Counted from the stretch's first letter, positions 11,312 to 54,345 are shown. The stretch is 64,000 nt of DNA from a virus (IMGVR_UViG_3300008111_001118); one strand, 5' to 3'. The notes: generated from the sequence alone by a model not told the origin. Made by a program: numbers and translations.

Positions 11312-12011
11312 TGTTTGCTTTATAGATTAACTTATCTATTCTGGTGATATTATCACCAACAATCATTTGCACCAGCATTACTACATGTTCATTACGTACA
11401 TACATGTAAGTTCCTTGAATCCAGCGATATTCGTTTTCGTGATGATCTAATGCAACTTTGCCAATTGAAACATTTTTAGAATTTTTCTTAATCCAGTCGG
11501 CTAATATCTTACTGCCCGGTTTCTTTCCAAATGTCAATTTCCAAGGAAACTTTGGTTCTTGATTTACTAAGATAACATTTTGATTGTTGGTTAGAAAGTC
11601 AATTGCTGACTCAGAAGGTTCCCATATTTCGACGTTAACAGAAAGTTTTGATGATACTTTTTTTAATAAGTCGTGGTCGTTTGTGTAAATTATAAGTGTA
11701 CGACTTTCACAACGAATCATATATTCGCCGGCATTTTTTAAACACTTGTATATGTGATAGGCTTCATCAACTTCGTGTGAATGTATAACTGTGGCTTTAG
11801 AAAATCTATTTCTAAGAGTTAAAATTTCATTGGATTTATTACGCTGAACAAATTCTTTTAAACGTTGTTCAGCGTAAGACAATTTACCATTACGTTGTAA
11901 ATCTGTACGGAAAATACTTGTAAGTGTATTTGTAGTTTTTAACTTATACAAATATTTCCCGTAATGCAATCGCTTTGCTTCATGCAGTTTCAGATTGCTC
12001 ATGTGTTTCAA
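11301..12011 (-). CDS. hypothetical protein (236 aa)
   Basis: ORF. Confidence 0.45.
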   Translation of the reverse strand: MKHMSNLKLHEAKRLHYGKYLYKLKTTNTLTSIFRTDLQRNGKLSYAEQRLKEFVQRNKSNEILTLRNRFSKATVIHSHEVDEAYHIYKCLKNAGEYMIRCESRTLIIYTNDHDLLKKVSSKLSVNVEIWEPSESAIDFLTNNQNVILVNQEPKFPWKLTFGKKPGSKILADWIKKNSKNVSIGKVALDHHENEYRWIQGTYMYVRNEHVVMLVQMIVGDNITRIDKLIYKANIDK

Positions 12012-14229
12012 CTACTAATTTAATCTCGTTATCATTGATATCGATATGTACTTCGCCGCCATCTTTTAGGCTTCCAAACAACATAAGCCTTGAAAGAGGA
12101 CGTTTAATATCTTTGTCAATCACACGTTGTAGCGGTCTTGCACCCATTTTAGGATCAAAGCCTTTGTCAACCAAGTAATCCAGTGCTTCGTCACTAACCG
12201 TAATTTTAACATTCTTGTCTTTGACTTGATCCATGAGTTCTTTCAAGAACTTTCCTACAATTTTCATCATAACAGGCTTGCTAAGTTTTGAGAATGTAAT
12301 TACACCATCGAGACGATTTCTAAATTCCGGACTGAAGTACTTCTTTAGTTCGCCGTCTTCGTAATCTCTGTCAAGACTTTGACTAAAACCAATAGTATTT
12401 TTCTCTGCTTCTTTAGCACCAAGGTTAGTGGTTAGGATAAGAACGCAGTTACGAGCATCTGCTTCTTTGCCGTTGGACCCTGTGATTTTACCATTGTCCA
12501 TCAACTGTAGAAGCACTGCACTAACATCAGGATGTGCTTTTTCAATTTCGTCTAGCAACAGTACACAGTTAGGATTCTCTTGTAGTTTGATGATGAGTTG
12601 TCCTGCATCATCTTCAAATCCAACGTAGCCCGGAGGTGCACCGATAAACTTTGCAATACTGTGCTTTTCTTGGTATTCACTCATATCAAAACGAATTAGT
12701 TTAACACCAAGGTGATGTGCAAGTTGTTTTGCTGTTTCAGTTTTACCAGTACCTGTTGGCCCCATAAACACAAACGAACCGATTGGTTTGTTTTCAGGTT
12801 TAAGTCCTGCTTGAGCAACAAGAATTTTGTCAACAATACTTTCAATTGCACTGTCTTGACCATAAACACTTGATTTTAGATTTGTTTCTAGATTGACAAG
12901 ATTTTCTGTTTCGCGTTCGGCAATTTGATCTTCGGGAATCTTTACAAGTTTAGCAAGTTCGTACTGAATATTTTCAGCAGTTACAACCTTGTTGTCAACT
13001 TGATCCAGCACTTTGAATCTGCTACATGCAACGTCAATGAGATCGATTGCTTTATCAGGAAGTTTTTTATCTGCTTGATACTTGACTGAAAGTTTAACAG
13101 CGGCTTCGATTGCATCATCAGTGATTACTACACTATGATAATCCTCATAGTACTTGCGAATACCATCAAGAATTTTAACAGACATTTCTGGTGTAGGTTC
13201 ATCAACATTTACACGCTGGAAACGACGCATAAGTGCGCGATCTTTTTCAAAATACTTGCGATACTCTTCCCAAGTAGTGCTTGCAACAACCTTAACGTTG
13301 CCTTTTGATAGGGCAGGTTTGAGCATGTTTGCAAGATCGTTAGCACTGTTTCCACTGCCAGCGCCTGCACCACTGATCATGTGTGCTTCATCAATAAACA
13401 TAATGGTCTTGCCCTTTGTTTGTAGGGCTTGAAGAACAAGTTTAAAGCGTTCTTCAAAGTCGCCGCGGTACTTACTGCCGGCAAGCATACTACCAATGTC
13501 CAGTGCATAAACATTATAGTCTTGTAAAAACTTTGGTACTTGTTTGTTAACAATTTTCCAAGCAAGACCTTCTGCAATTGCAGTTTTACCTACACCAGGA
13601 TCGCCAACCATTAGTACGTTTGACTTGGTTCTACGTCCAAGTGCAAGAGCAACTTGTTCTACTTCTTCTTCACGTCCAATAACAGGATCAATCTTGTTTT
13701 TCTTTACTTCGCTGTTCAAGTCTGTGGTAAAGGAACGAAGTGCCTTGTTAGCAACGCCTTGATTTTCCTGTTGTTCTTCTTCGTCAACCATGCTATCAAA
13801 TTCAGTACTCATGTAAGTAACAAATTTGTCTTTTGAGATACCGGCTTGTTGTGTTACAAAGTATGCATACGAACGTTTTTCGTTTAGAATACTAACAAAT
13901 ACGTCACCAACGTCAATGTTATTACGTCCATTAAACAATACCTGTGTAAATGCTCTATTCAATACACGTTCAACAGTTTGTGTCTTTTTAGGCTTGTACC
14001 TTGTGCCTTCGATCTTAATCTCATCTAGTTTTGTCTTGAGATAGTTTTCAAGATTCTTTTTCATTAGTTCAGGGTCGGCACCAAACCCAATAATAACTTT
14101 TTCAAAGTGTTCTTCACACAGTATTGCATACAAAAGATGCTCAAGTGTAATGTACTCATGCTGTAGTTTTTTAGCATCGTTCATTGCTTTGTCAAAAACA
14201 ACTTGTAGTACTTGGCTAGGTTCAACCAT
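11980..14229 (-). CDS. clpA: ClpA-like AAA+ unfoldase (Clp N-domain plus two AAA modules)
   Basis: Clp_N-like EYITLEHLLYAIL; Walker A GDPGVGKT (D1) and GPTGTGKT (D2); the segment KNTIGFSQSL...FSPEFRNRLDGVITF aligns with the E. coli ClpA ClpP-docking IGL/IGF loop region. Confidence 0.85.
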   Translation of the reverse strand: MVEPSQVLQVVFDKAMNDAKKLQHEYITLEHLLYAILCEEHFEKVIIGFGADPELMKKNLENYLKTKLDEIKIEGTRYKPKKTQTVERVLNRAFTQVLFNGRNNIDVGDVFVSILNEKRSYAYFVTQQAGISKDKFVTYMSTEFDSMVDEEEQQENQGVANKALRSFTTDLNSEVKKNKIDPVIGREEEVEQVALALGRRTKSNVLMVGDPGVGKTAIAEGLAWKIVNKQVPKFLQDYNVYALDIGSMLAGSKYRGDFEERFKLVLQALQTKGKTIMFIDEAHMISGAGAGSGNSANDLANMLKPALSKGNVKVVASTTWEEYRKYFEKDRALMRRFQRVNVDEPTPEMSVKILDGIRKYYEDYHSVVITDDAIEAAVKLSVKYQADKKLPDKAIDLIDVACSRFKVLDQVDNKVVTAENIQYELAKLVKIPEDQIAERETENLVNLETNLKSSVYGQDSAIESIVDKILVAQAGLKPENKPIGSFVFMGPTGTGKTETAKQLAHHLGVKLIRFDMSEYQEKHSIAKFIGAPPGYVGFEDDAGQLIIKLQENPNCVLLLDEIEKAHPDVSAVLLQLMDNGKITGSNGKEADARNCVLILTTNLGAKEAEKNTIGFSQSLDRDYEDGELKKYFSPEFRNRLDGVITFSKLSKPVMMKIVGKFLKELMDQVKDKNVKITVSDEALDYLVDKGFDPKMGARPLQRVIDKDIKRPLSRLMLFGSLKDGGEVHIDINDNEIKLVVETHEQSETA

Positions 14230-14740
14230 TTTTAATCCTTTTGATTCTGCGCTTTTCGGCCATTTTATATTTTAGTTTACTAACTCTGTCGATGTACTGA
14301 ATACCATGTAAATGATCGTATTCATGTAAGAATATACGTGCATCTATATCATCAAACTTTGTTTCTACATGTATAACATTTTTAAAGTCACTTGTCAAGG
14401 TATCAAATTCAACAATGCAACTAATTGGACGTTTTACTTTTAAAAACAGCCCAGGATGACTTAAACAGCCTTCGGGTCCTTCTTCAGTTTCTTTGCTTAA
14501 TCCTTTAATAACAGGATTCATCACAACAGTTATCTCACCGTATTGTCTATTTAACACAGGTTTCATAACAAAAATCTGATACGGTACTCCTACTTGATTA
14601 GCACTTAACCCTAGACCGCCTTCTTTAACCACAAGGTCGATCATATCTAATGCAATCGGTGCAGGATGCAGTTGATTAAACGGCCAAGTTTGCGTTGGCG
14701 TTTCTAGCATAACATTAGGTGCTAGTATTAATTGCATCAT
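14222..14740 (-). CDS. def: peptide deformylase
   Basis: [18 protein letters not shown] and HEYDHLHG motifs. Confidence 0.85.
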
Positions 14741-15521
14741 TTATAACTTTTATCCTTTCGATTATGATATCGTCTGATATCTTTGGAACAAAACCTTTTA
14801 CTGTTAGATAAAGATGGCCAGTTATTCCTTTAGCAGGGTCTATTAAACCGTATCCTGCAATAGAAAAAACAGTTCCAGGTTGAGTTCCTTTAGGTATTTT
14901 AACATTTATTTCGTTGCCAGTCAATGACTTAATAACAACGCTTGTTCCTAAAATAAGATCAAAAACACTAACTTCTTTTGTGCATTTTAGATTCTTACCA
15001 TCTCTTTCAAACACTGAATGTTTCTTTACTCTAACAAGAACAATTAAATCACCTCTAGGTATTGAAGCGATACTGTTGTCGCCTAGACCTTTAAAACGTA
15101 TGGCTTCGCCGTCTTGTATACCAGCATGTATTTTAATTGTAGCAATAGTACTTTGTCCATTAAACAAATTGTAATTTGCAATTAAATCTTTGCCAGTAAC
15201 TACTTCTTCTAAGTCTAGCGTAATTGCTATTTTAATATCTCGATTTTTTCTAACATTAGGATATCCACGCATAGTTCCAAAGAATGCATTTAATATGTCA
15301 TCCATGTTTGTTGAATTGAAGTTGTATTCCTGTTTAGGTTGATCATACTCTGCACGTTTTGTAGTATCTTTTAACGTTTCGTATGCTTCGTTTATTTCAG
15401 CAAAACGTATGGTATCACCACCCCTGTCAGGATGGTGTTCCATTGCTAATTTTCTATATGCTTTTTTTATTTCATCTTGTGTAGCAGTTTTTGAAACACC
15501 AAGTACTTTATAATAATCCAT
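14715..15521 (-). CDS. J-domain (DnaJ-like) co-chaperone
   Basis: N-terminal DYYKVLGV...HPDRGGD J-domain containing the HPD tripeptide. Confidence 0.7.
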
Positions 15522-15555: not shown

Positions 15556-16035
15556 TTAGTTAAATGGATTTAATCTTTGCAATGCTGTTTCTTGTTGTTG
15601 TGTAGCGTTTGTTGCCTGTTCTGTTGCTGCCGCAATTTCTGCATTTGCAGCCTCTAAAGCACTATTACTATCTTTGTAATAGCCTTCGTATGCAATTATA
15701 ATTGCCTGTTGCTGTTGAATAAATGCTCTTAAATCACTAAGGTTAAGGGCAAGTGCTTCATAGCCCTCATCAGTTAGTGCAAAGAACACAACAGGTTTTC
15801 CTTTTGCTTTTAATTTTTCAATTTGTGCTTGAAAGTTTTCTGGTGTTACTACATACCACTCAACATTTCTAGTTTGTACTCTATCAACTCCGGGCAAAAC
15901 CAGTTCTGGTTTTTCAACTGGTTTTGCCGATATTTGTATAGGTTGTGGTTTTGGAGCACCACAGGCACTAACGACGAATAAGATCGTCGTAAAGCCAAGG
16001 ACATTCACTATTGAACGAACGTGCATCTTTTGCAT
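15556..16035 (-). CDS. outer-membrane lipoprotein, o-spanin-like
   Basis: Signal peptide with lipobox (LFVVSAC|G), Pro-rich linker; overlaps the 3' end of the upstream i-spanin-like gene. Confidence 0.5.
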   Translation of the reverse strand: MQKMHVRSIVNVLGFTTILFVVSACGAPKPQPIQISAKPVEKPELVLPGVDRVQTRNVEWYVVTPENFQAQIEKLKAKGKPVVFFALTDEGYEALALNLSDLRAFIQQQQAIIIAYEGYYKDSNSALEAANAEIAAATEQATNATQQQETALQRLNPFN

Positions 16036-16534
16036 TCCTTTCTTCTTCTGTTAATTCTGCCCCACTTAGTAGTTCGAAACATCTTCCTACTTTATTGCTT
16101 GCCCCGTTAATAATGCGTTCGACCAATGCAGGTTTTTCGTTGCCCAATACACCCAAGTCATGTTTAGCCAATCTGTTTGACAGTTCTCTATTTTGTTCTC
16201 GAATGGCTTGAAACTCTCGGTTGATACGAGTTATTTCTGCATTAGCCTTAGCAAAATCTTGTTGTAGTACATTTATAGTTTCTTCATTGGTTTGTACTGC
16301 TATTTCTAACTTAGCATTATTTTCAGTTAACGTAGCAATTCTAGACTGACTGTCTTTGTAATACCAAGCAAAAGCCCCTGCCATTGCTAGCATCAAGACT
16401 CCCATCATTGCCATACCTTTTAATCCTAACATAGACGGTACTCCAATTTTAAAACCACTGGTTAGCCTAGTAACTTTGACAATGTCTTTGGCCCGGCCAC
16501 TCCATCGGCTGTTAAGCCATTCTTTGTCTGCCAT
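15968..16534 (-). CDS. i-spanin-like protein (TM segment plus coiled coil)
   Basis: Hydrophobic segment MAMMGVLMLAMAGAFAWYY followed by a long heptad/coiled-coil region; position between endolysin and lipoprotein. Confidence 0.5.
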   Translation of the reverse strand: MADKEWLNSRWSGRAKDIVKVTRLTSGFKIGVPSMLGLKGMAMMGVLMLAMAGAFAWYYKDSQSRIATLTENNAKLEIAVQTNEETINVLQQDFAKANAEITRINREFQAIREQNRELSNRLAKHDLGVLGNEKPALVERIINGASNKVGRCFELLSGAELTEEERNAKDARSFNSECPWLYDDLIRR

Positions 16535-17397
16535 GCTTTTAATGCTGACTCTGTTCCAGGGCCAAATGAGCCGTCTGCTGTAACTCCAAGTGCTTTTTGC
16601 AATTTTGCTACTGAAGGGCCGCTTGATCCTTTTTTCAATGTTTCTGTAACGCTGGCTGATGCACCACCAGTACCACTTGATACGGAACTGGCTGATGGTG
16701 TAAAATTTCCACCAAGTACTTTCAATGCTTCTTCAAAACGTTCTTTACGATCAGCAAGGCCGATGTCACCACCGTTGATGATTTTTGTCATCTTAACAAT
16801 GTCTTTGGTGTCAGCAACTGCATTTAGTTTCTTTGCGTTCCAGAACCAGCAAGCACTCTCGATAGCACCTTTTTCAGTTGCAACATAATCAGCAGCCTGT
16901 TCTGCTGTCATGTTAACACTTTTACCAAAGTTGGTATAGTTCTCACGGCCAGTAAGTTGCTTTAGACCACGACCACGGAATCTCCATCCGTCGCCTTCTT
17001 TTACGTTGCCCATCTTGGAAGTTCTGAACTCGTCCATGTAAACATAGTTAGCAATCATCTCTGGGTTTTTAGCATACTCTTTTGCGTTACGCTTGCCTGG
17101 ACCAAAATAGCGAGGGAATATTTTTAACAGAGTTTCTTCTCTATAATTCAAATTCTCTTCGAGCATCTTGAAGTTACCTGACTCGTGAGCACACTGAGCC
17201 ATAAATCCTGCAACACGCTCGATTGTGTTAATTTCGTACTTAGGAAATATCTCTATCATTGCGGCATGCCACTTTTCGGCATCCGGATTTCCTTTTAAAA
17301 TTTGTTTTACTTGTTCAACTGTAAATTTGAACTTTAAGTCTTCTGCGCCCATAGTAAATTCCTTTCTTGACACTCGCGACATTGGCAGTTGTCGCAC
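16462..17397 (-). CDS. endolysin: glycoside hydrolase family 19-like catalytic domain plus C-terminal peptidoglycan-binding domain
   Basis: FMAQCAHESGNF...E catalytic region typical of GH19 lysozymes; C-terminal LQKALGVTADGSFGPGTESALKAWQ...GLTADGVAGPKT PG_binding_1 repeat. Confidence 0.7.
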   Translation of the reverse strand: MRQLPMSRVSRKEFTMGAEDLKFKFTVEQVKQILKGNPDAEKWHAAMIEIFPKYEINTIERVAGFMAQCAHESGNFKMLEENLNYREETLLKIFPRYFGPGKRNAKEYAKNPEMIANYVYMDEFRTSKMGNVKEGDGWRFRGRGLKQLTGRENYTNFGKSVNMTAEQAADYVATEKGAIESACWFWNAKKLNAVADTKDIVKMTKIINGGDIGLADRKERFEEALKVLGGNFTPSASSVSSGTGGASASVTETLKKGSSGPSVAKLQKALGVTADGSFGPGTESALKAWQTKNGLTADGVAGPKTLSKLLG

Positions 17398-24082: not shown

Positions 24083-24382
24083 TTATGGGCGTGATGGCCA
24101 AAGACCATTTACACAAATAATGTAGTGTAGTCCTTTAGAAGGACTTTCTAGTTTTGGCAATGCAAAAGTAGTTATTCCATCGCCGCCAAAAGTACATCCT
24201 AGCAATGCAAAGAGGGCTTGATACTGAGAAATATTTAGTATTCTACCGTCACAGGCCATGAAGCCTTCTGGGTCATAGTTAAATGCAACAAGTTTAATTG
24301 CTCCAATAAATTCTTCCATGTTTTTTCCTTTATAAAATTTACAAATCGCCGACTTTGCGATTCTCACTATATTGTACATCAA
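24083..24382 (-). CDS. stand-alone phage tail-collar domain protein (99 aa)
   Basis: FNYDPEGFMACDGRILNISQYQALFALLGCTFGGDGITTFALPKL matches the tail-collar fibre domain consensus. Confidence 0.5.
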   Translation of the reverse strand: MMYNIVRIAKSAICKFYKGKNMEEFIGAIKLVAFNYDPEGFMACDGRILNISQYQALFALLGCTFGGDGITTFALPKLESPSKGLHYIICVNGLWPSRP

Positions 24383-24743
24383 ATTGTCCGCCTGGGTAAC
24401 GTGCTTCTAGTTTGCGAACGTTTTCAGCAATCACTTCATTTGGATCAATACCAATTGCTCTACAAGCATTAACCCAATACCAAGCAATGTCTCCGAGTTC
24501 GCGTTTCATATGAAAAACTGTTTCGTCGTTCATTGGCTTGCCTTGAAACACACATTTCTTAACAATTTCGGCAAATTCGCCACCTTCTGCTGCTATACCA
24601 GTACTACCAGTCATTAGCAATGCAATATTAACTACTTCGTTTAGTTCGCGAAGCCTAACAATCATGGCTTCGAGATCATTTGAAGGACCGCTTGTGACTT
24701 CTGCAACAAAATCACGATATTTATTTAGGTCGACTTGTGTCAA
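24339..24743 (-). CDS. mazG: MazG-type nucleoside triphosphate pyrophosphohydrolase
   Basis: AEGGEFAE and ELGDIAWYWV motifs; size typical of phage MazG. Confidence 0.6.
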   Translation of the reverse strand: MTQVDLNKYRDFVAEVTSGPSNDLEAMIVRLRELNEVVNIALLMTGSTGIAAEGGEFAEIVKKCVFQGKPMNDETVFHMKRELGDIAWYWVNACRAIGIDPNEVIAENVRKLEARYPGGQFDVQYSENRKVGDL

Positions 24744-24752: not shown

Positions 24753-25157
24753 TTATCTGTTAATAAAATTTTCTGGGCGTATATCCACGCCTGCACCGTT
24801 TTCGTACTCTTTACCAAATATTACATCGTTGGGCTTTTCTTTGCTCCAACCAACAATACTAGTAGTTTCGATCATTCTTAGTTCTTTGCTACCAGTGCCG
24901 TCATCTACGTCAAACGCTCTAGTCCAACGTCCGTGTTCAACTAGAACCCAATCTCCAACTTGATAATCTTCGTTGTTTTCAGGCCCTTTAGCATGAACTC
25001 GACCCCAGCGTGGGTAAATTCCACGTGTAGTGCCGTCATCATCTTTGATAATCAATCCGCTCTTGGTTTTTTGTTCTCCAAAAAACATATCAGTTACAAT
25101 AACATGATCCTTAATAGGAGTCAATTTACCTTTAATTGTATTGATATTTAAAACCAT
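24753..25157 (-). CDS. GroES / T4 gp31-like co-chaperonin
   Basis: N-terminal LTPIKDHVIV...KSGLII mobile-loop/beta-barrel signature of the Cpn10 family. Confidence 0.55.
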   Translation of the reverse strand: MVLNINTIKGKLTPIKDHVIVTDMFFGEQKTKSGLIIKDDDGTTRGIYPRWGRVHAKGPENNEDYQVGDWVLVEHGRWTRAFDVDDGTGSKELRMIETTSIVGWSKEKPNDVIFGKEYENGAGVDIRPENFINR

Positions 25158-25549: not shown

Positions 25550-27445
25550 TTACTTATGATCATTGTCAACCGATAGATTTCCATCTGATACAGTGCAACG
25601 CCAATAACTTGCTTTACGGTTCCAATGATATGCCTTATGATAAAAGGTTCTGTTATCAACAGGTTCTTTGTCCGCATGATCAATAACTAAATCATTGGAA
25701 CGTATTCCTAGCATACTTTCTGTTAAGTCTGCGTCTATATCATTGAGAATTATTGGATACTGCGCTGTATTGTTTTTGCACATTAGTATGTTTAAGAATA
25801 CAGATGGAAGTGCTGGTAACGATGGGTAATACTGCCGCATAAAAGCAACAAGATCATCAACTAACTTACGTGTGTTCTTGTGTAACACAACACTGGAAGC
25901 ACCTTTGTATTCCCAATAGATATCGTCTTCACCTAAAACCTTGCGACCCCAAAAACCTTGACTTTCGAATGTGTTTTTTAAATGAGAAAGTGTTTCTTGA
26001 TATTCACTATGTAAAATAGTATCGGGATTCTGCTTAATAAACTCCAATATATTTTCAAATACATCAGTTTCTTTGCAGCCAGTTTCTTTACAGATGTATT
26101 TTGTTAGATAATGTCCCCAACCATAATAATACATTAGGATAGAGATCCAACTAAACATATGCCCAGCAAGCATGGTTTCATAATCTACAGTTCTTGTGCT
26201 GCAAACAGCGTCAGTGTATTCAACAATATAGTCTTTTAAGTCCTTGGTACTTAGATAATATGTATCAAGAGGAACAGTTTTAGTTTTTATGCCCCAGCGT
26301 TGTTGATATTTAGGATCTCCCATTGTGGCATTATTGGTAATAACCAGTGGATGTATCATTAAGAAACTATCCTGCCCTAGGTCGATTAACTTTTGTATGC
26401 CTGTTTTAAGAGATTCGTAAGTTTCTTCAGGCATTGGCCATATAAGTTCGCTGTACGTTGGAATGTTTTCTTCTTTATAACGTTCTAAGTAATGCTTTAC
26501 TTCGTTTTCTTTTATATTAAAACGTTCACTGGCTTCAAGAGTAGGGTCGTTAAAACTTTGCATAGCAAACGTAACACCTTTGAATATGTCAACGCCGTTT
26601 GCTTTATTCATCATTGCTATTTCAAAGTTGCGATCGACATTGTTTTTAGCCCAAGTAGCATCCCACCAACGTGGATAACCGTACTTCTTTTTAGTGTCAA
26701 TAACATATTGTGTTATTTCAACGTCTCTTTCTAGTAATCCCCAATTGCTATCGCATACACTGACATATTCTATTCTATTGCGACCCATCCAGTCAATTTC
26801 TGCTTTGACACGATTTATATCAAACAGTGTTAGTTTATTCCAGTAACCGTCGCCGATATCACAGAACGCACAATGATAAGGACAGCCTCTTAGTGTTTCA
26901 AATGTGACTTGCCACATAGTATCTTCAGGATAATTGGCCATAATAGGTTCATAAAACCCTTCTAGTATAGGACTTGGTATGTCTGATATATCTAGAACTC
27001 TAGCAGCCATTTTTGGCATGTGAGTGCGAGTTTGCACATGAGGAATGTCGTTGTAGTTGTCCTCTCTTGCTAATATTTCTTTAAAGGCACGTTCTCCTTC
27101 TCCGTGAACTGCTAGATCAAACATAGGATATCGGTCAAAAAACTCAGGATCACGTTTGTGAATTTGTGGTCCGCCTACAACAATCTTACAATTGGGCCAT
27201 AATTTTTTAATTTCACGTGCCAGTGTTTGATTATATTCCCAATTCCATACGTAACTACTCATAGCAACCATCGAAGGATTGTCCATAGTTTTTACATAAT
27301 CAGTAGGAGGTATTTTTTCAATAAGTGTGTCTTTGAGATTCCAGTTTTCATTGCGAGCGTATAGCCATTGATAAGCAATTGCCAATGGTAAAAACTTATT
27401 AGGTCCGTAAGCATCAACAACTTGTACTAGATAAATGTTTTTCAT
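25550..27445 (-). CDS. radical SAM enzyme with N-terminal B12-binding-like domain (631 aa)
   Basis: CPYHCAFCD (CxxxCxxC) radical SAM cluster motif preceded by a KIVVGGPQ-type B12-binding-like domain. Confidence 0.7.
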   Translation of the reverse strand: MKNIYLVQVVDAYGPNKFLPLAIAYQWLYARNENWNLKDTLIEKIPPTDYVKTMDNPSMVAMSSYVWNWEYNQTLAREIKKLWPNCKIVVGGPQIHKRDPEFFDRYPMFDLAVHGEGERAFKEILAREDNYNDIPHVQTRTHMPKMAARVLDISDIPSPILEGFYEPIMANYPEDTMWQVTFETLRGCPYHCAFCDIGDGYWNKLTLFDINRVKAEIDWMGRNRIEYVSVCDSNWGLLERDVEITQYVIDTKKKYGYPRWWDATWAKNNVDRNFEIAMMNKANGVDIFKGVTFAMQSFNDPTLEASERFNIKENEVKHYLERYKEENIPTYSELIWPMPEETYESLKTGIQKLIDLGQDSFLMIHPLVITNNATMGDPKYQQRWGIKTKTVPLDTYYLSTKDLKDYIVEYTDAVCSTRTVDYETMLAGHMFSWISILMYYYGWGHYLTKYICKETGCKETDVFENILEFIKQNPDTILHSEYQETLSHLKNTFESQGFWGRKVLGEDDIYWEYKGASSVVLHKNTRKLVDDLVAFMRQYYPSLPALPSVFLNILMCKNNTAQYPIILNDIDADLTESMLGIRSNDLVIDHADKEPVDNRTFYHKAYHWNRKASYWRCTVSDGNLSVDNDHK

Positions 27446-40943: not shown

Positions 40944-41309
40944 TTAAATAGCAGGTACTGCTAATTTATCCATATCAAAATTTACACTCACACCACAACC
41001 ACAACTGCTCTTGGCATTTGGATTGCGAATTTCAAAATTGCTGCCTACTAGACTGCGAATGTAATCTACTTCAGTTCCTATTAAAAACATAAGGCTGTGT
41101 GAGCCTACTACAAATCTACCAGCGTTATCTGTGTGTATAACAACGTCGTTGGGTTCTAGATCTGACGGATGTGCTACAGTTCCCCAATCATATTCAAACC
41201 CTGCACAGCCACCACCACGTAGATTCAAACTAATTGCATAGCAATTGTTTTCCTTGCATAGCATATCGATTTGTTTTTTAGCAGATTCTGTAAGAGTGCA
41301 AACTTCCAT
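40944..41309 (-). CDS. IscA/HesB-family A-type Fe-S cluster carrier
   Basis: GGGCAGFEY and C-terminal NPNAKSSCGCGVS align with the IscA SGCSGMAY / NPNVKDECGCGES Cys triad. Confidence 0.75.
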   Translation of the reverse strand: MEVCTLTESAKKQIDMLCKENNCYAISLNLRGGGCAGFEYDWGTVAHPSDLEPNDVVIHTDNAGRFVVGSHSLMFLIGTEVDYIRSLVGSNFEIRNPNAKSSCGCGVSVNFDMDKLAVPAI

Positions 41310-44858: not shown

Positions 44859-45167
44859 CTACTGTTTCTCTAAATAGTCTACGTTTATTACACGTTCATA
44901 TACAAACGATCTCCAGCCGTTGGCATTAACGTCCCACACTGTAATAGTGCCAGGTTTGCCATCTTTTACACCCTTAGGATGATTTACTTCAGGAATGTGC
45001 AATAGATTTTTTGTACAGGTCATTACACGTTCGTCACCATCTAATTTTTTGAAGGTGACTACAACTGTGTTTTCTTGTAAAACTTCAACCAACTTTTCCT
45101 CTGTTGGAATATTTTTAATTTTTGCTATTGTATCTTTTACTATATTCGTCATAGAACATTTTTCCAA
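44859..45167 (-). CDS. hypothetical protein (102 aa)
   Basis: ORF. Confidence 0.4.
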   Translation of the reverse strand: MEKCSMTNIVKDTIAKIKNIPTEEKLVEVLQENTVVVTFKKLDGDERVMTCTKNLLHIPEVNHPKGVKDGKPGTITVWDVNANGWRSFVYERVINVDYLEKQ

Positions 45168-45723
45168 TTAACTTGTGTGTTTCGATTCCTGGGTGGCTTA
45201 GATCTCTAGCACTTTTGCAGTTACAAACTTCATAGTTATCTTCAAAATCAAGGTCAACAATTTCTATATTGTTTTCATAACAGATATGTTTTATTGCTAA
45301 CATATGCACTTGACGAAATTTATCAAGAGATTCATCGTTTAACAGATATTTTTTAATATTGTTAGAGTGGTCTGTCCACCATGCTACCGGTGTCCATATA
45401 GACTCAACAGTATTGTAAACTTCGTATCTTTCTTTTGAAGGTATAAACATAAAAATTCTTTTTACTTTCATACCTTCGTTTAAAAGTCCAGTTAAAGATC
45501 TATAGCACCCTCCTAAACTGCCACCAGGTATACCTGCATTATAAAATGGTTCAGAGAAGTGCTTTTTTAAATGATTGTACCAAACATCTTGTTCGTTAAC
45601 TCCAATTCCAAACGTATTACTACAACCTAACGCCAAATTGTAGTAATCATCGGAGAAGTCTGCGTCATTTCTAAAACCATACTTGTCAGTTTTATACATT
45701 ATATTCTTACCAGTCCATCCCAA
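45115..45723 (-). CDS. hypothetical protein (202 aa)
   Basis: ORF. Confidence 0.45.
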   Translation of the reverse strand: MGWTGKNIMYKTDKYGFRNDADFSDDYYNLALGCSNTFGIGVNEQDVWYNHLKKHFSEPFYNAGIPGGSLGGCYRSLTGLLNEGMKVKRIFMFIPSKERYEVYNTVESIWTPVAWWTDHSNNIKKYLLNDESLDKFRQVHMLAIKHICYENNIEIVDLDFEDNYEVCNCKSARDLSHPGIETHKLIGKMFYDEYSKRYNSKN

Positions 45724-45840
45724 CTTTTTTAAAAGTTCAGGGTTTAATTTTAAGTTTTTTTTTAAAATTTTCTCGTGAGTCGGACGGCAGCCAATCCGAC
45801 TCGAAATTTGTAGGTAATTTATTGTTAAAATTTGTATTCA

Positions 45841-46458
45841 TTATCTTTTTTCAACAACCTTATCGGCCAACCCATATTCTACTGCTTCTTCTGCTGATAG
45901 GAATGTGTCAAACTTCATGGTGTCGAACATGTCTCCGTAGGTCTTGCCTTTTGCATTGTGTTTTACATACAGTTCTGTAAGACGCTGGTTAATGCGTTGG
46001 CTCTCTTCAAAACTACGACGAGCATCTTCAAACTGTAGTTCTTGCACGTGAACACTACCGCGTGTTCCTGGTGTACCCGAACTTACACGGTGAATCATTG
46101 TACGTGATTGAGGCAATACATAACGCTTGCCTGCTGCACCTGCTTGTGCAAGAAAACTGCCCATGCTAGCGGCTTGACCCATAACAATAGTGCTAACGTC
46201 TGGTTTGATAAACTGCATGGTATCGTAGATAGCAAGACCAGCAGTAACCAGTCCGCCTGGGCTATTGATGTAAAGATTGATGTCTTTTTCAGCATCTACA
46301 CTTTCAAGAAACAGCATTTGTGCTACAACAAGATTGGCCATGTTGTCTTCAACTGGTCCGTTGAGCATGATAATGCGATCTTTAAGCAAACGGCTATAGA
46401 TGTCGTAAGAACGTTCGCCGCGTGATTCTTGTTCGATTACGATAGGTACTAGTGGCAT
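45841..46458 (-). CDS. clpP: ATP-dependent Clp protease proteolytic subunit ClpP
   Basis: Canonical ClpP sequence with active-site GQAASMGS (Ser), His and Asp in conserved positions; 205 aa. Confidence 0.9.
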
Positions 46459-46472: not shown

Positions 46473-47660
46473 TTATAGTGCTTTTAGTAGAATAGTGTCT
46501 TCGTTGATACGTCCGCTGAGTTTAGTGTCAGTGGTTTTAATTTCGTCTAAGAAACGACGCAACTTGATCTTGCCTGCTGCCTTAAATTCTTTCAGTGTTT
46601 CTTCGGGCTTGCGAAGTGTCTTTTGCACACTTTTTTCTTCGTCGTAACCAATAAGAGCACTGCCCTTAACAGTCATTACGCTAGCATCTTCAGCAGCAAC
46701 ATACTTGCCAAGTTTGCGTGTCTTGATGTTGAATACCCAGATTTCTGCGGCTCCAATCAAGTCCAGCGGGTTAACACTTGCAAGTTGATACTTTTCGTCC
46801 ATTGCTTTGAATTTCAACTTAGCAACGATCTTGTCCTTGCTAGGTGCTTTCTTCACACGCGGCTTACGAGTTGCTTTACTGGTGTCAATAACCAGCATAC
46901 AAGCGCCTACAAGCGTCTCTAGTGCAGTTAGGTATGCTTGTGCATCTTTTTTACTAAGGTGGCTGTAGCCTTCGCGCAATTGCTGTGCCATATCCTTTTC
47001 ACGCTCGTCTTTGATCTTGGCAATGGTTTGCGGAGTAGGCAAGTTCTGAATCAAACGTACTTCTTCAAGTTCGCTTTGATAGTTAGACATGATCTTACGT
47101 GCATGAGCCTGCGTCACTTTATACTTTGCAAAGTGAGCAGTAAAGTCAAATCCTTTAGGATCAAAGGTTGTCTTATCCGTAACAAAACCTTCCAGCCACG
47201 CTTCGATGTCTTCCATTGCTTCTGCGGCTTGATCAGCAATACGTTCTTGAATTGTAGGCACAGGTGCAGAGGATTTAGCCGTCTTTTCTGCTGCACGATC
47301 CTTTTTAGCAACCTCTTTGCCTTCTTCGATAAGACCGTCAAGATAACGTTTAAAACCGTTAACATAATCTGTAGGAGGAGCAAGATTATTCAGCAGCCAG
47401 TGTGCAGTGATTGCCCAATGACTGTAATTAGCCGTCTTCCATTCTGGCAAACGGTTAATGTGTGCAGCATCAGTCTTAGGAAGAAATCTCTTCACGTATT
47501 CTTTGATCTTATTGCTCCATTCGCGGCTTTCAATTTCGTAATGAACGAAATGCTTTGCCTTCCAGAATGTGTCAGTTGGAGCAAGTGCAAAGCCACTAAG
47601 ACGACGAGTTGCACGAACAGTTGCTTTTTTCTTGGGTTTAAGAGCGGTAGTACGAGCCAT
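46473..47660 (-). CDS. hypothetical protein (395 aa) co-transcribed upstream of clpP
   Basis: ORF with a strong sigma70-like promoter upstream; Lys/Ala-rich with coiled-coil-like segments. Confidence 0.5.
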
Positions 47661-50013: not shown

Positions 50014-50097
50014 TGGTGCCCACTGCCGGACTCGAACCGGCACTCCAGAGGAAGCAAATTTTAAGTCTGCCGCGGCTACCAATTTCACCAAGCGGGC
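50014..50097 (-). tRNA. tRNA-Leu(TAA), class II
   Basis: Hand-folded: acceptor GCCCGCT/AGTGGGC, anticodon stem GCAGA/TTTGC with loop CTTAAAA, long variable arm, T-arm CCGG-TTCGAGT-CCGG, encoded CCA. Confidence 0.8.
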
Positions 50098-50100
50098 ATT

Positions 50101-50496
50101 TTATTTTTTATACTTATCACCGGTAACTTGACCGGCACTCATTATAATAACTGGAATACGTTTAATATTCATTTCACGAAATGCAAAGTAACGATGATGT
50201 CCATCAATTACTTGATAAGTGTTTTCTCGTGGAATTCTTCTTACTAGTATTGGAGGTATCTTGCTGATATCTCGTTTTATCTGTTTTTTAATACTGTTTA
50301 TATTTGCTCTAGCATCAACATCTTTAGTATCACCTTTACCGTCTCCTTCGAATCTAGATCGGATCTGATTCATAGGCATTACAACAACTCGGTTGTATTC
50401 GTTTTTAAAATCAGTTACATTGGCACCGACAGTACTGTCACCAGTTTCAGGATCAACGTCTTTGGTTATTTTTGCTACTACTTCAAATATTTTCAT
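50101..50496 (-). CDS. ParB-like nuclease domain protein (about 131 aa from the internal Met MKIFEV)
   Basis: DGHHRYFAF motif of the ParB/sulfiredoxin fold. The ORF as called (to 50553) would overlap tRNA-Leu(CAA), so the internal start is preferred. Confidence 0.5.
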   Translation of the reverse strand: MKIFEVVAKITKDVDPETGDSTVGANVTDFKNEYNRVVVMPMNQIRSRFEGDGKGDTKDVDARANINSIKKQIKRDISKIPPILVRRIPRENTYQVIDGHHRYFAFREMNIKRIPVIIMSAGQVTGDKYKK

Positions 50497-50512
50497 ATAG
50501 TATTTATTATTT

Positions 50513-50595
50513 GGTGCCCCAGGAGGGACTTGAACCCCCACGCCTTGCGGCAAAAGATTTTGAATCTTCCGTGGCTACCATTACACCACTAGGGC
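50513..50595 (-). tRNA. tRNA-Leu(CAA), class II
   Basis: Hand-folded: acceptor GCCCTAG/CTGGGGC, anticodon loop TTCAAAA, long variable arm, T-loop TTCAAGT, CCA encoded. Confidence 0.75.
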
Positions 50596-50820
50596 AAAGT
50601 GTTGTTTAAAGGTGGCATCAGCACTTGTCTAGTACAAATTTATCGGGCCCAGCTGCGTTCAAACAACTATGTGTCTGTTTTTACACCTACGTAAGGACTA
50701 GAATGTTTTTTATCCTTACTCCTTTAAACAATATAGTAATTAGCCTAGCAATAACCTATAGCATATCGCCGGGTCGCGGTCGACTCACTTCCCTTACACC
50801 CCCAAGGTGCAGGCTAAAAT

Positions 50821-50896
50821 TGGTTGCGGTGGGCAGGACTCGAACCTGCGATTTACTGGTTATGAGCCAGTCGAGATGCCGCTTCTCTACCCCGCA
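50821..50896 (-). tRNA. tRNA-Met/Ile2(CAT)
   Basis: D-stem GAGA/TCTC, anticodon stem ACTGG/CCAGT with loop CTCATAA, T-arm GCAGG-TTCGAGT-CCTGC; acceptor has one mismatch. Confidence 0.65.
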
Positions 50897-51397
50897 ATAA
50901 ACTTAACTAGTAGAACAGTCTCGGAAATGGAGTAGTCGCCTACAGCCAAATGGGTCTGTACTCGAAAACTGTTCAACTAGTTAAGTTAAAAGATATGCCA
51001 ATCCTCTTATCACTTTCCACAAACGGTACCGGTTTTTGAACTAACATATCGTTAAACTTAATTTTTGCATAGGCTGAGATTATGCCTTGCTGTAGGAGCC
51101 TTTGACCATTACCGTTAGCCTTGCGAGCCACGTTCTGTCGTTATCCACAAGAGCCTTTTACGGTCATCTTGTATCTCCCAGTGGTGCCTTTTTTGGAGAG
51201 TGGCGTTTCTCTCGTCGCACGTTGCTACTCGTCCTTCTATCCTTCGTCTGCCTTGCGAGCAGTTCACAGTCGCTAAACCGTTACGCTATCTTTCCGAACA
51301 ACTACATCAGCCTTGCGAGCATCCGTAGACCACATTCTCTTGCGAGTGTGGCATTAACCACCTTTCACAACGTACCGGGACAGTCTTTCGCTTTTGT

Positions 51398-51468
51398 TTA
51401 TCAAAGAAGGGATTGAACCTTCGCCGATTCCGTTCAATGGAATTGCTCTACCGCTGAGCTATTTGCGA
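51398..51468 (-). ncRNA. aberrant tRNA-like element (anticodon loop ATTGAAC = UGA anticodon, short variable arm, 2 mismatches in acceptor stem, no CCA)
   Basis: Good D-arm (GCTC-AGCGGTA-GAGC), perfect anticodon stem ATTCC/GGAAT, T-arm GAAGG-TTCAATC-CCTTC, but acceptor TCGCAAA vs TTTGATA pairs only 5/7. Confidence 0.4.
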
Positions 51469-52133
51469 ACCTACTTCGATGTGCTGTCCCAGTTGCTTCA
51501 CGTCTTGTTAGACGCAAAATACAACACACCGACTGTCTTTTGCCTTGCGGGCTACTCAACGTCTTTTTAAGTATCCGGGGCCTAACCCTTCCACTCTCAA
51601 GATGCTAACTTGCCTTTGCTTGCGGGCTCAGACTAGTTAACTACCTGTTAACTTTCAGCATTCGTTAGTTTGGCTGAACAGTGTTTGGGCGCCAACCCTC
51701 TTATCGCTCACCGACCGGCTCTGCGACTATCCTTTCGGACACTATTCCTAACTTACTGCCTACCGCCTTTCTACGGACGGGAGTTGCTTTCGGTACCCGA
51801 GTCAACTCTAGTTCAGGCTTGCTTAGATGGACCATTGCTGGCGCAAGTTTATAGGAAACCTTGCTTTGGGTGCATTACTGCACTTACCCTTACGTGGACG
51901 CTAAGCCGCCCATCTTACTGTGTTTACAACGATATATTGTTTATCTTATCGTCAGTCGATAGACATAGTGGTTAGCATTGCCATTTCAACTTATTGTCAG
52001 TAGCGTGTGGCCCTGTTGTTTCGCTAGGAACCACCCTAGTTACTTGACAGTGCTACTACCCAATATACCTGTGTAAACACAGTGTTTACCAAATTATCAA
52101 AGAGCGTGTAAACAACTTCTTGCTTACTTGTTT

Positions 52134-52162
52134 AATATAGTGCATGTTGCACCAAAGGTCAA
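52134..52162 (-). promoter_or_regulatory. sigma70-like promoter (TTGACC-N17-TATATT) firing leftward into the 1.3-kb ORF-free region
   Basis: Read from the sequence; copy 1 of a duplicated promoter-leader module (see 54979-55008). Confidence 0.55.
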
Positions 52163-52191
52163 CCACTTTTTTATCTTTTTTTATTTTTTTT

Positions 52192-52266
52192 TGGAGCGGG
52201 TAACGGGATTCGAACCCGTGACCTGGTGCTTGGCAAGCAGCCGCTCTACCCCTGAGCTACACCCGC
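52192..52266 (-). tRNA. tRNA-Gly(GCC)
   Basis: Acceptor GCGGGTG/TACCCGC, anticodon loop TTGCCAA, T-arm ACGGG-TTCGAAT-CCCGT, CCA encoded; one C-C mismatch in the anticodon stem. Confidence 0.7.
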
Positions 52267-52313
52267 ATTTTAAGTTTGTAGTGATTATTAAATTCACTAT
52301 GTAGACAATTTAA

Positions 52314-52389
52314 TGGTGCCGGTAGAGAGATTCGAACTCCCCACCTGATGATTACTAATCAACTGCTCTACCAAATGAGCTATACCGGC
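52314..52389 (-). tRNA. tRNA with anticodon loop TTAGTAA (AGT anticodon, nominally Thr; unusual A34)
   Basis: Perfect acceptor GCCGGTA/TACCGGC, D-arm GCTC-ATTTGGTA-GAGC, T-loop TTCGAAT, CCA encoded; one T-T mismatch in the anticodon stem. Confidence 0.6.
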
Positions 52390-53093
52390 AAATTATTATA
52401 AAATGGAATAACCACATTTTCAGCAAATGCTTCGTGTTGTTTTCCTGAAGGATGATCATCTCCCGGTGTAGGAAAGTCGTTGGGCATGTTATCTCTAGAC
52501 CATTCGTAGCAACCCTTAACTGGTACAAATCTTGTCCAGTCTACCATTTCTTTTAAATATTCTGTTTGCATAGTATTGACATTACTCTCATCAAATGTGC
52601 TTTGATTCATATTACTAAAAAAGTATTTTATATTATTTACTTTCAAGTAATTTTGCAATCTTAGAATATTTTCATAGGTTCTGATTAAATCAAATGTGTT
52701 GTTTGTATAAATCTTATAATGATTCGTTGAAAATCGACTAGGAAAACTTGCATTAATCAATACCCATTTGCCTGCAGGATCATTTTTTGGCCACGCTAGG
52801 TGACTGGCTTCGGATATGTTTGGCTTTGATAATTGATTTAATACAAATGAGTTTTCTACATAAAATGATGCTCTGTTGGCAGCACTCCACATAACCCCAA
52901 CTACTATATCTTTCGATTCTACATTGTTTTTGAATAAATCATTAACTTGATAAATTGCACGTCTAGCGATATGCTCATTTCCATTACTGCCCAATCCCAT
53001 TGGGTAATGGGCATATTTCATTTTTTTTGCAAAATGAAAGGGCCAAGTATGATTGTCGTATGTAAATGAGCATCCGCTTGATACAAAGTGCAT
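52380..53093 (-). CDS. hypothetical protein (237 aa) embedded in the tRNA array
   Basis: ORF flanked by tRNAs on both sides; no recognised motif. Confidence 0.5.
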   Translation of the reverse strand: MHFVSSGCSFTYDNHTWPFHFAKKMKYAHYPMGLGSNGNEHIARRAIYQVNDLFKNNVESKDIVVGVMWSAANRASFYVENSFVLNQLSKPNISEASHLAWPKNDPAGKWVLINASFPSRFSTNHYKIYTNNTFDLIRTYENILRLQNYLKVNNIKYFFSNMNQSTFDESNVNTMQTEYLKEMVDWTRFVPVKGCYEWSRDNMPNDFPTPGDDHPSGKQHEAFAENVVIPFYNNLPV

Positions 53094-53185
53094 ATTTTAT
53101 TTATCCCTCATATAGATCTTCGTAATCAATATCGTCATCGTCTTCTAACCAATCGGTATCGGACGAAGTTTGATCAACAGTTTAA

Positions 53186-53262
53186 TGGTCGGAGTGACAG
53201 GATTTGAACCCACGACATCTTGGTCCCAAACCAAGCGCTCTACCAAACTGAGCTACACTCCG
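53186..53262 (-). tRNA. tRNA-Pro(TGG)
   Basis: Acceptor CGGAGTG/CACTCCG, anticodon stem CTTGG/CCAAG with loop TTTGGGA, T-loop TTCAAAT, CCA. Confidence 0.8.
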
Positions 53263-53268
53263 ATATAC

Positions 53269-53344
53269 TGGCTGGGAAGGGTGGATTCGAACCACCAACC
53301 AACGGATTCAAAGTCCGGTACTCTACCAATTGAGCTACTTCCCA
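53269..53344 (-). tRNA. tRNA-Gln(TTG)
   Basis: U1:A72 acceptor TGGGAAG/CTTCCCA (typical of Gln), anticodon loop CTTTGAA, T-arm GGTGG-TTCGAAT-CCACC. Confidence 0.8.
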
Positions 53345-53350
53345 ACATTT

Positions 53351-53432
53351 TGGTGCGGATAGAGGGACTCGAACCCCCACGCTTACGCACTAGTTCCTAA
53401 GACTAGCGTGGCTACCATTACACCATATCCGC
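53351..53432 (-). tRNA. tRNA-Leu(TAG), class II
   Basis: Acceptor GCGGATA/TATCCGC, anticodon stem CTAGT/ACTAG with loop CTTAGGA, long variable arm. Confidence 0.8.
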
Positions 53433-53437
53433 ATTAA

Positions 53438-53513
53438 TGGTGCCCCCAGCAGGACTTGAACCCGCGACCCCCTGATTACAAATCAGGTGCTCTACCAGCT
53501 GAGCTATAAGGGC
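53438..53513 (-). tRNA. tRNA-Thr(TGT)
   Basis: Anticodon stem CCTGA/TCAGG with loop TTTGTAA, T-arm GCGGG-TTCAAGT-CCTGC, CCA. Confidence 0.8.
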
Positions 53514-53523
53514 AAAAACTTTT

Positions 53524-53597
53524 TGGAGCGGGTAACGAGATTCGAACTCGTGACAAGAGCTTGGAAGGCTCGCATGTTACCGCTACACCATACCCGC
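53524..53597 (-). tRNA. tRNA-Gly(TCC)
   Basis: Acceptor GCGGGTA/TACCCGC, anticodon loop CTTCCAA, T-loop TTCGAAT, CCA. Confidence 0.8.
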
Positions 53598-53604
53598 ATT
53601 ATAT

Positions 53605-53680
53605 TGGCGACCTGTACCGGGATCGAACCGGTGTTCTTCTGCGTGACAGGCAGACGTATTAACCACTTTACCAACAGGCC
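53605..53680 (-). tRNA. tRNA-Asp(GTC)
   Basis: Anticodon stem TCTGC/GCAGA with loop CTGTCAC, G73 discriminator, T-loop TTCGATC, CCA. Confidence 0.8.
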
Positions 53681-53870
53681 AAAAGCATCACACACGGCTT
53701 ACAAGTTCCGTCCCACCACTATGTGAAAGGTGTGATGCAACACTGTATACTACGCCGTTCCAAACCAACATCTAGTGTTGATATGCTATTTAAAGCCACG
53801 CACTGCTATTTCAAACAGTTACTCACGATGCTATGCTTACGCTACTAGGAGGTTCACAGTGTGTTTATTA

Positions 53871-53958
53871 TGGCGGAAGCGGTGAGATTCGAACTCACGG
53901 TACCTTGCGGTACGCTGGTTTTCAAGACCAGAGCCATCAACCACTCGGCCACACTTCC
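53871..53958 (-). tRNA. tRNA-Ser(TGA), class II
   Basis: Acceptor GGAAGTG/CGCTTCC, anticodon stem CTGGT/ACCAG with loop CTTGAAA, long variable arm, CCA. Confidence 0.8.
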
Positions 53959-53965
53959 GTATATT

Positions 53966-54041
53966 TGGCACAGGAGCAAGGACTTGAACCCTGGACATTC
54001 GGTTTTGGAGACCGACGCTCTACCAACTGAGCTACACCTGC
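53966..54041 (-). tRNA. tRNA-Trp(CCA)
   Basis: Anticodon stem TCGGT/ACCGA with loop CTCCAAA; acceptor with one mismatch and one G-U. Confidence 0.7.
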
Positions 54042-54047
54042 ATATAT

Positions 54048-54122
54048 TGGTGCGGAATGAGAGGGTCGAACTCCCGACAACCTCGGTGTAAACGAGGGGC
54101 TCTACCACTGAGCTAATTCCGC
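54048..54122 (-). tRNA. tRNA-Val(TAC)
   Basis: Acceptor GCGGAAT/ATTCCGC, anticodon stem CCTCG/CGAGG with loop TTTACAC, CCA. Confidence 0.8.
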
Positions 54123-54345
54123 ATATCACTGTTTACCGCGTGACTAGAAAACTTGCCATCAAAGCGGGATTTGTTAATTGCTTGTTAATCTCTGGGCTTC
54201 CCCGTTAATCTTCAAGTTCTTAACTGGTCTCGGACTGCAACTTTGATACCGTGTTTACTGATTGTGCAGTACTGTTCAAGTTAAACAACTTACACAATGT
54301 TCAACGCGGCTTTTCTAGCCCCTCGGAAAACAGTGATTATATTAA

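Follow-up and report, generated by a model that had tools for sequence, protein, structure and literature searches.

Why should a virus carry what looks like a bacterial protease, its unfoldase and the accompanying folding helpers? This question is raised by a 64,000-nucleotide stretch of the viral genome IMGVR_UViG_3300008111_001118 (in the following "the window" for the whole stretch), whose minus strand encodes a ClpA-like unfoldase, a peptide deformylase, a J-domain co-chaperone and, farther away, a ClpP serine peptidase. An earlier note on the sequence had viewed these four genes as one dedicated module for remodelling or degrading proteins during infection. The four open reading frames (ORFs) indeed lie where the note had placed them, are intact and phage-borne, and are all located on the minus strand. 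We consider them part of a proteostasis kit inherited within a lineage of very large phages, which is made up of a dnaJ-def-clpA cassette, a canonical clpP without linkage to it and a gene of the GroES type. With moderate confidence, we favour a reading in which ClpA docks on ClpP and the kit serves late-infection quality control and assembly support. The catalytic motifs of the kit genes are intact and, as far as the alignments of homologues reveal, under purifying selection.

The unfoldase gene (11980–14229, minus strand) codes for a ClpA-type double-ring AAA+ protein of 749 residues, in which the Pfam domains Clp_N (1.6e-6), AAA, AAA_lid_9, AAA_2 and ClpB_D2-small were recognized. Alignment with E. 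coli ClpA (pdb-code: 1ksf; 758 residues) yielded a single colinear match between residues 6–735 and 4–739 (E=3e-201); with ClpB and ClpC the match is split in two by their M-domain. The phage protein contains the N-domain and no coiled-coil M-domain. The Walker A and Walker B motifs of the D1 ring (GDPGVGKT, 209–216; FIDEAH, 278–283) and of the D2 ring (GPTGTGKT, 490–497; LLLDEIEKAH, 557–566) as well as the pore loops KYR (253–255) and GYVGF (534–538) are intact and kept in the ClpA homologues. The protein matches phrog_4871 (4.9e-249) and scores 889 bits on TIGR02639, below the equivalog cut-off of 993 bits; judged by these scores, it is best termed ClpA-like and not an equivalog. For the partnership with ClpP the decisive element is the docking loop of D2, whose correspondence to that of E. 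coli had already been noticed earlier: its tripeptide IGF (residues 613–615; 12385–12393, minus strand) aligns with IGL of E. coli ClpA. IGF is present in 82 of 87 phage ClpA homologues, the exceptions being LGF, VGF (twice), IGM in 121Q and IGY in SCTP-2; the ClpAs of the cultured phages PA5oct and Atu_ph07 have IGF like that of the window phage, and the ClpA of XbC2 has MGM. A clean correlation between IGF and the possession of a phage ClpP was considered and holds only partly, since SCTP-2 has a ClpP and yet IGY, and the sample is small.

The peptidase gene (45841–46458, minus strand; 205 residues; Pfam CLP_protease, 1.6e-65) specifies a canonical ClpP, as the earlier note had maintained. 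Its triad Ser98/His123/Asp184, embedded in the motifs GQAASMG, MIHR and KFDTF, is found in 83 of 83 homologues, and the NF001368 subfamily cut-off is passed (259.5 versus 249 bits), while the stricter TIGR00493 is missed (243.7 versus 308.6 bits). The protein shows 60% identity to mature E. coli ClpP and starts exactly at the N-terminus of the latter, without a propeptide; the N-terminal axial loop (residues 2–25) is nearly identical in both. The docking pocket, read by eye, is mostly kept, with Y62, F82, I90, M92 and L114 unchanged and the exchanges F112Y, L189V and Y60N, and ClpP is predicted to be docking-competent. A deviation from the E. coli enzyme was detected by alignment in the handle, where 10 residues are inserted in the region of helix E (residues ~139–148; 46015–46044, minus strand) and two more at residues 168–169 (45952–45957, minus strand). 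This 10+2 insertion occurs in the clade of the window phage, with the consensus ..VQeLqfEDa.R.. (at least 90% conserved at several positions), and in PA5oct. All matched solved ClpP chains are ~12 residues shorter over the aligned range and the insertion is absent from each of them; the ClpP of Atu_ph07 is also devoid of most of it (193 versus 203 aligned residues). An AlphaFold2 model of the ClpP monomer based on a 22-sequence alignment is uninterpretable, with a mean predicted local distance difference test score of 51 and values below 50 across the insertion. Close relatives of this ClpP, 76–85% identical, were found on at least 597 viral contigs.

In the window, the neighbours of clpP are a ligase gene, small ORFs, genes for tail fibres and baseplate, and tRNA genes, and no head gene lies close to it. 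The gene following it (45116–45841, minus strand) is frameshifted after about codon 34, near 45735–45745, through an error of assembly or because it is a pseudogene; other contigs of this phage carry it as an intact 241-residue ORF (for example L457:10618–11343), whose ATG overlaps the ClpP stop codon. By eye, SGNH-like motifs (GCSNT..., DLSHPG) can be seen in its product, which is similar to the DUF6071 protein encoded at 52380–53093. In this phage species the 241-residue gene separates clpP from a gene for a WYL_2/Sm-like SH3 barrel protein (PF10902, 46 bits; 44859–45167, minus strand), which in relatives immediately follows clpP more often than any other gene and is only 2 nucleotides away from clpP on contig VFQS010000017.1. 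The WYL_2 protein is a better ClpP-associated candidate than the 395-residue protein (46473–47660) that had been put forward as a possible adaptor; its position may reflect shared ancestry alone. The 395-residue protein was rejected as a Clp adaptor: it contains no Pfam domain, its gene immediately precedes clpP in only 1 of 68 informative loci and is 64 kb away from clpP in PA5oct, and it has homologues in the T4-like phages Cr30, phiM12 and ACP17, records which are not among the canonical-ClpP matches listed. At two other loci (L149:49–3872, 3300042988_000374; L148:2689–3885, 3300031813_000012), genes for a ClpX with zinc finger and AAA_2 domain, a methionine aminopeptidase (M24) and a full Hsp70/DnaK (837 bits) are found just upstream of ClpP, and ClpX-Hsp70-...-ClpP is a recurrent order among relatives (L297–L456). 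ClpX relatives are present on at least 523 and Hsp70 relatives on at least 596 viral contigs of up to 383 kb, although part of the Hsp70 matches could be cellular contamination of the viral set. A scan of the window revealed no ClpX, methionine aminopeptidase or Hsp70 gene.

The first cassette gene, dnaJ (14715–15521, minus strand), encodes a 268-residue protein with the Pfam domains DnaJ (2.1e-24) and DnaJ_C (1.9e-33). The HPD motif at residues 30–32, found in 74 of 74 homologues, is followed by the DnaJ C-terminal substrate-binding domains; the translation contains a single cysteine, and thus neither CxxCxGxG repeats nor a zinc finger. The protein falls under the equivalog cut-offs for DnaJ (189 versus 377 bits) and CbpA (130 versus 403 bits). 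It belongs by its domain architecture to class B (type II, CbpA/Sis1-like) and is predicted to stimulate an Hsp70. The second gene, def (14222–14740, minus strand), encodes a peptide deformylase of 172 residues (Pfam Pep_deformylase, 1.5e-32, 112.8 versus 22.8 bits) with the motifs GLGLSANQ (42–49), EGCLS (90–94) and HEYDH (139–143). The metal-ligating EGCLS and HExDH motifs (Cys, His, His) are conserved in 45 of 45 homologues each, and the basic C-terminal helix is retained; the protein matches phrog_2890 (8e-32) and misses the NCBIfam cut-offs (100 versus 125). The co-chaperonin gene (24753–25157, minus strand) is GroES/Cpn10-like according to a Pfam Cpn10 score of 23 bits against a cut-off of 21.1 (E=8e-5), and its product is 34.5% identical to the PA5oct "chaperonin" EST35_0290. 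A tblastn search with E. coli ClpS, together with a Pfam scan covering every remaining minus-strand ORF, detected no ClpS in the window; the same scan, with the ORFs joined as pseudo-proteins, detected no ClpX, Hsp70, Lon, FtsH or prohead protease.

The arrangement of these genes differs in several respects from the picture of one dedicated module. In transcription direction the order is dnaJ-def-clpA, so that def and dnaJ lie upstream of clpA and not downstream as had been described. The coding sequences overlap by 8 nucleotides between def and clpA and by about 23–26 nucleotides between dnaJ and def, the following gene also overlaps the end of clpA, and no credible terminator was found from the divergent PhoH intergenic region (~18.8 kb) down to clpA; dnaJ, def and clpA are probably co-transcribed. 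A scan for promoters and terminators was not enriched over shuffled sequence and gives no evidence on timing. With an alignment of ClpA from six phages as query, relatives were found on at least 534 viral contigs, the best 80 being 66–79% identical. A dnaJ homologue is present immediately upstream of clpA on the same strand in 65 of 65 environmental loci with sufficient upstream sequence, which form one clade with strong overall synteny and are not 65 independent observations. More telling than this count is the persistence of the dnaJ-clpA pair in PA5oct/MIJ3 and Atu_ph07 despite ~41% ClpA identity and different flanking genes. In 121Q, XbC2 and SCTP-2 there is no such pair and ClpA stands alone. 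The deformylase gene is interposed between dnaJ and clpA in 39 of the 65 loci and missing in 26, and it is likewise missing in PA5oct and Atu_ph07. Only dnaJ-clpA is hence a conserved pair, while clpP has no link to it and is found closer to a phage clpX in relatives. The cassette is flanked by s179 and p120, homologous to PA5oct proteins found by mass spectrometry in virions, and adjoins the lysis genes. The lysis cassette (15556–17397), directly upstream of dnaJ, comprises genes for an endolysin (GH19-like plus PG_binding_1; 16462–17397), an i-spanin-like membrane-anchored coiled-coil protein (15968–16534) and an o-spanin-like lipoprotein with a ...VVSAC lipobox (15556–16035) whose gene overlaps the i-spanin-like one, all on the minus strand; it is kept in most relatives and is not at this position in PA5oct.

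The window originates from an uncultured freshwater jumbo myovirus of the PA5oct/RaK2/Atu_ph07 supergroup. Nearly all of its coding is on the minus strand, and it contains 18 tRNAs, T4-like baseplate and tail-fibre genes, a T4 Rnl1-like ligase, an endolysin and spanins. A megablast search of the cassette against 50,697 phage records gave zero nucleotide matches, its relatives being found at the protein level only. An identical ClpA is present on the 63-kb JGI metagenome contig Ga0315909_10000328 and in 42 blocks of an assembly collection, and an identical ClpP in 65 blocks of that collection. We regard the source as a jumbo phage because close ClpP relatives sit on contigs of 300–374 kb, such as the 329-kb NCBI contig VFQS010000017.1 (GCA_006365055.1; 329,544 bp); the window would correspond to about one fifth of a genome of such size. 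The nearest cultured phages with both Clp genes are, by protein, the PA5oct/MIJ3 group (ClpA 42%, ClpP 62% identity) and next Atu_ph07 (ClpA 41%, ClpP 56%). The gene order is colinear with that of PA5oct, running from the ligase over clpP, MazG, a polIII fragment, the GroES-like gene, a clamp loader, PhoH (on the opposite strand) and two structural genes to dnaJ-clpA and a further structural gene. Compared to PA5oct, the window phage has gained the lysis cassette and def in the dnaJ-clpA block and a tail-fibre/baseplate block between the Clp genes. Freshwater jumbo phages with T4-like structural genes and Bacteroidota as predicted hosts have been described as "moraphages" (Perez-Hernandez et al. 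2025, PMC12619734). ClpA, PhoH and an S77 T4-type prohead core protease belong to the core genes of these phages; DnaJ is frequent among them, and part of them also have DnaK and Hsp20 (PMC12619734). The window fits this published description.

Based on these data the following scenario can be drawn. ClpA hexamers would dock via their IGF loops on tetradecamers of the phage ClpP, and possibly of the host ClpP, to form an ATP-dependent ClpAP protease. The class-B J-protein would stimulate an Hsp70, which could be the DnaK of the host or, given that a DnaK gene occurs in some relatives, a phage counterpart whose gene lies beyond the window. The deformylase might allow more nascent phage proteins to be matured at their N-terminus. 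Because the cassette lies between homologues of virion proteins and beside lysis genes, late quality control and assembly support are favoured, in which misfolded or unassembled proteins would be cleared while very large virions are produced in bulk. Particular host proteins might be degraded in addition.

Several findings weigh against this ClpAP-centred scenario. clpA and clpP are separated by ~32 kb (30 kb had been given) without syntenic linkage, Tyr60 of the docking pocket is replaced by Asn, the handle bears the insertion described above, the late timing of the cassette is read from its gene context, and neither biochemical nor other experimental work on any phage ClpAP was found in the literature. 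Moreover, among the canonical-ClpP matches listed there is no record of the 121Q/RaK2-like group, which has ClpA in the records inspected, and the core role of ClpA may be ClpP-independent or proceed via host ClpP. The main rival, rather unlikely in our view, accordingly splits the partnership: ClpA together with the J-protein and Hsp70 would work as a ClpP-independent or host-ClpP-dependent unfoldase or assembly chaperone, while the phage ClpP would mainly serve a ClpX, either that of the host or one encoded elsewhere in the phage genome. ClpA is indeed located among structural genes in 121Q, XbC2, PA5oct, Atu_ph07 and the window, and it is a core gene of moraphages in a paper in which ClpP goes unmentioned (PMC12619734). 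An assembly or translocase role has also been proposed for phage ClpA and ClpX (Iyer et al. 2021). A ClpX with zinc finger is encoded 2–5 kb upstream of ClpP at two loci with the ClpP type of the window and at many of a sister group (ClpP ~62% identical); in the sister phages ClpP follows within 2–5 kb in 48 of 80 ClpX loci, ClpX is found just upstream in 30 of 80 Hsp70 loci, ClpX-Hsp70-ClpP clusters occur, and at some loci the genes for ClpX, methionine aminopeptidase and Hsp70 stand side by side. However, for the ClpP type considered here just 2 of 80 loci have a ClpX within 6 kb, the window has none, and the docking tripeptide argues for a partnership with ClpP, as IGF is kept in 82 of the 87 ClpAs from ClpP-bearing lineages and altered to IGM and MGM in the ClpP-less 121Q and XbC2. 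Since bacterial ClpP serves ClpA and ClpX alike, both partnerships are not mutually exclusive and may coexist.

The same genes could instead be directed against the host, with ClpAP and the J-protein destroying or sequestering host defence proteins or regulators such as the host DnaJ-dependent sensor bNACHT25, or in the way in which the J-protein Rki of phage RB43 rewires sigma-32. This appears unlikely, because the cassette resides in a structural and lysis block and not in an early region, neither ClpS nor another adaptor was found in the window, the 395-residue putative adaptor is not linked to ClpP, and the C-terminal domains of the J-protein are generic, like those of housekeeping class-B J-domain proteins. 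In its favour one can refer to the view that patchy peptidases such as jumbo-phage ClpP act against the host (Iyer et al. 2021), to counter-defence by phage chaperones as raised by Perez-Hernandez et al. with reference to the DnaJ-dependent bNACHT25 (PMC12619734), and to Rki as a characterised phage J-protein which acts on host DnaK and sigma-32 (PMC3486835). A role of ClpP as virion-associated or capsid-maturation protease, which the earlier note had already considered improbable, is suggested by the top PHROG match, phrog_94 "head maturation protease", by the same name in RefSeq and in part of the GenBank records for PA5oct-like phages and Atu_ph07, and by the annotation of PA5oct ClpP (EST35_0272, L009:4350–5021, MK797984.1) with "ESI-MS/MS" (electrospray ionization tandem mass spectrometry), i.e. 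its detection in virion preparations. phrog_94, however, is a broad family, from which the label on canonical phage ClpPs (as in NC_071039.1, NC_042013.1 and OR805292–OR805295) was probably transferred as an artefact. The window protein passes a cut-off for cellular ClpP and misses that of the head-maturation ClpP-related family NF045542 (83.4 versus 120 bits), it has the full axial loop and docking pocket, and its gene lies outside the head module near ligase, tRNA and tail-fibre genes. In PA5oct an S77 (T4 gp21-type) prohead protease is encoded between the portal and major capsid genes, and in moraphages such a protease is a core gene together with ClpA (PMC12619734). ClpP is patchy among related phages, and the 121Q/RaK2-like group, without a canonical ClpP among the matches listed, must mature capsids all the same. 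The neighbours of PA5oct ClpP flagged by mass spectrometry are FtsH, ligase and MazG, the authors count seven "virion-unrelated enzymes", and PA5oct ClpA and DnaJ carry no such flag; the detection of ClpP might be due to packaging or to carry-over. We hence consider a maturation role highly improbable, while the mass-spectrometric detection of PA5oct ClpP counts both for it and against the quality-control scenario. The latter is also weakened by the search with PA5oct gp152 and then its alignment across viral and genome contigs, in which no contig shared an S77 protease with this ClpP or ClpA among the best 80 of more than 500 per list. The rejection of a maturation role in the earlier note is thus backed by family scores and by the S77 protease of PA5oct, and qualified by the virion data.

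Returning to the favoured proteostasis kit, the neighbourhood of dnaJ and clpA invites one bolder thought. In E. coli clpA is paired with clpS in a clpS-clpA operon and not with dnaJ, and in ClpB the M-domain serves the coupling to DnaK. The phage dnaJ holds the clpS position beside clpA and is kept there at ~41% ClpA identity while the surroundings change, for which reason the J-protein might be regarded as an adaptor. The pair could then represent a direct functional coupling not known in bacteria, in which the J-protein and Hsp70 deliver substrates to a ClpA devoid of an M-domain and the clients are passed on to the phage ClpP, whose modified handle may prevent mixing with host rings. We consider this proposal quite unlikely and mention it as a speculation.

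The comparison with known systems places the window among related solutions. PA5oct and MIJ3 (Arenbergviridae, Wroclawvirus) share with it the dnaJ gene directly upstream of clpA, a clpP elsewhere near a DNA ligase, the ClpP handle insertion and the IGF loop; besides the moderate protein identities given above, they differ in that the PA5oct block has no deformylase or lysis cassette, clpP is 13 kb instead of 32 kb away from clpA, and FtsH is encoded beside the ligase. Atu_ph07 likewise has dnaJ (gp293) directly upstream of clpA (gp292), IGF and a canonical ClpP of 56% identity, but no deformylase between dnaJ and clpA, and it additionally encodes ClpX, ClpB, ClpS and a further Clp ATPase. With E. 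coli ClpAP (ClpA 1ksf/6w1z; ClpP 1tyf) the phage proteins agree in domain order, length, ATPase rings, pore loops, IG[F/L], triad, axial loop and most pocket residues, while the missing propeptide, Y60N and the 10+2-residue handle insertion distinguish the phage ClpP. Active-type deformylases of cyanophages and Vibrio phages are an established class of auxiliary genes, and phage deformylases already constitute a PHROG family (phrog_2890). The C-terminal part of RB43 Rki is not known to be related to DnaJ, whereas the window J-protein has the full class-B architecture with DnaJ_C and a gene fixed beside clpA. Both are phage proteins with a J domain and its HPD motif; action through DnaK is predicted for the window protein and has been described for Rki, the product of an RB43 ORFan gene (Perrody et al. 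2012, PMC3486835). Phage ClpA, ClpP, ClpX, ClpS, ClpB and DnaJ were described for Atu_ph07, and its authors proposed roles of the Clp proteins and chaperones in virion assembly, replication control and aggregate clearance (Attai et al. 2018, PMC6102473). Phage Clp and chaperone genes were later surveyed across 224 jumbo phages (Iyer et al. 2021). The paper on moraphages contains no mention of ClpP, deformylase or a dnaJ-clpA linkage (PMC12619734). The novelty implied for the window in the earlier note is thus reduced, as PA5oct and Atu_ph07 carry annotated clpA, clpP and dnaJ and the literature discusses such genes; the set adds a well-conserved example to a known kind of system. Modest new details of the present analysis are that dnaJ and clpA are strictly linked, that def is inserted facultatively between them, and that the handle of ClpP contains an insertion.

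The remainder of the window carries further genes, all on the minus strand. The 18 tRNA genes (50014–54598) lie between the DNA ligase and the 55–57 kb region. At 61792–63861 a possible RNA-repair trio was found, composed of a cREC_REC cyclic-phosphate-processing receiver (61792–62214), the T4 Rnl1-like RNA ligase (62153–63307) and an AAA_33 kinase-like protein (63343–63861), which recalls the tRNA repair of T4 against host anticodon nucleases. Auxiliary genes encode MazG (24339–24743), a B12-binding radical-SAM enzyme (25550–27445) and an IscA/HesB-like Fe-S assembly protein (40944–41309). An SPFH/Band-7 protein (57287–58699; phrog_11908) is also encoded; bacterial SPFH proteins pair with FtsH- or NfeD-type proteases, and the FtsH carried by PA5oct beside its ligase has no counterpart seen in the window.

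AAA+ proteases and chaperones of phages have been catalogued in jumbo phages, and the lineage considered here, represented by hundreds of viral contigs, abounds in metagenomes from freshwater and elsewhere. With its strictly conserved dnaJ-(def)-clpA cassette it offers a clean system for studying the reasons for which very large phages encode protein quality control of their own, and it could reveal whether substrates can be passed from a J-protein to a ClpA-type machine.

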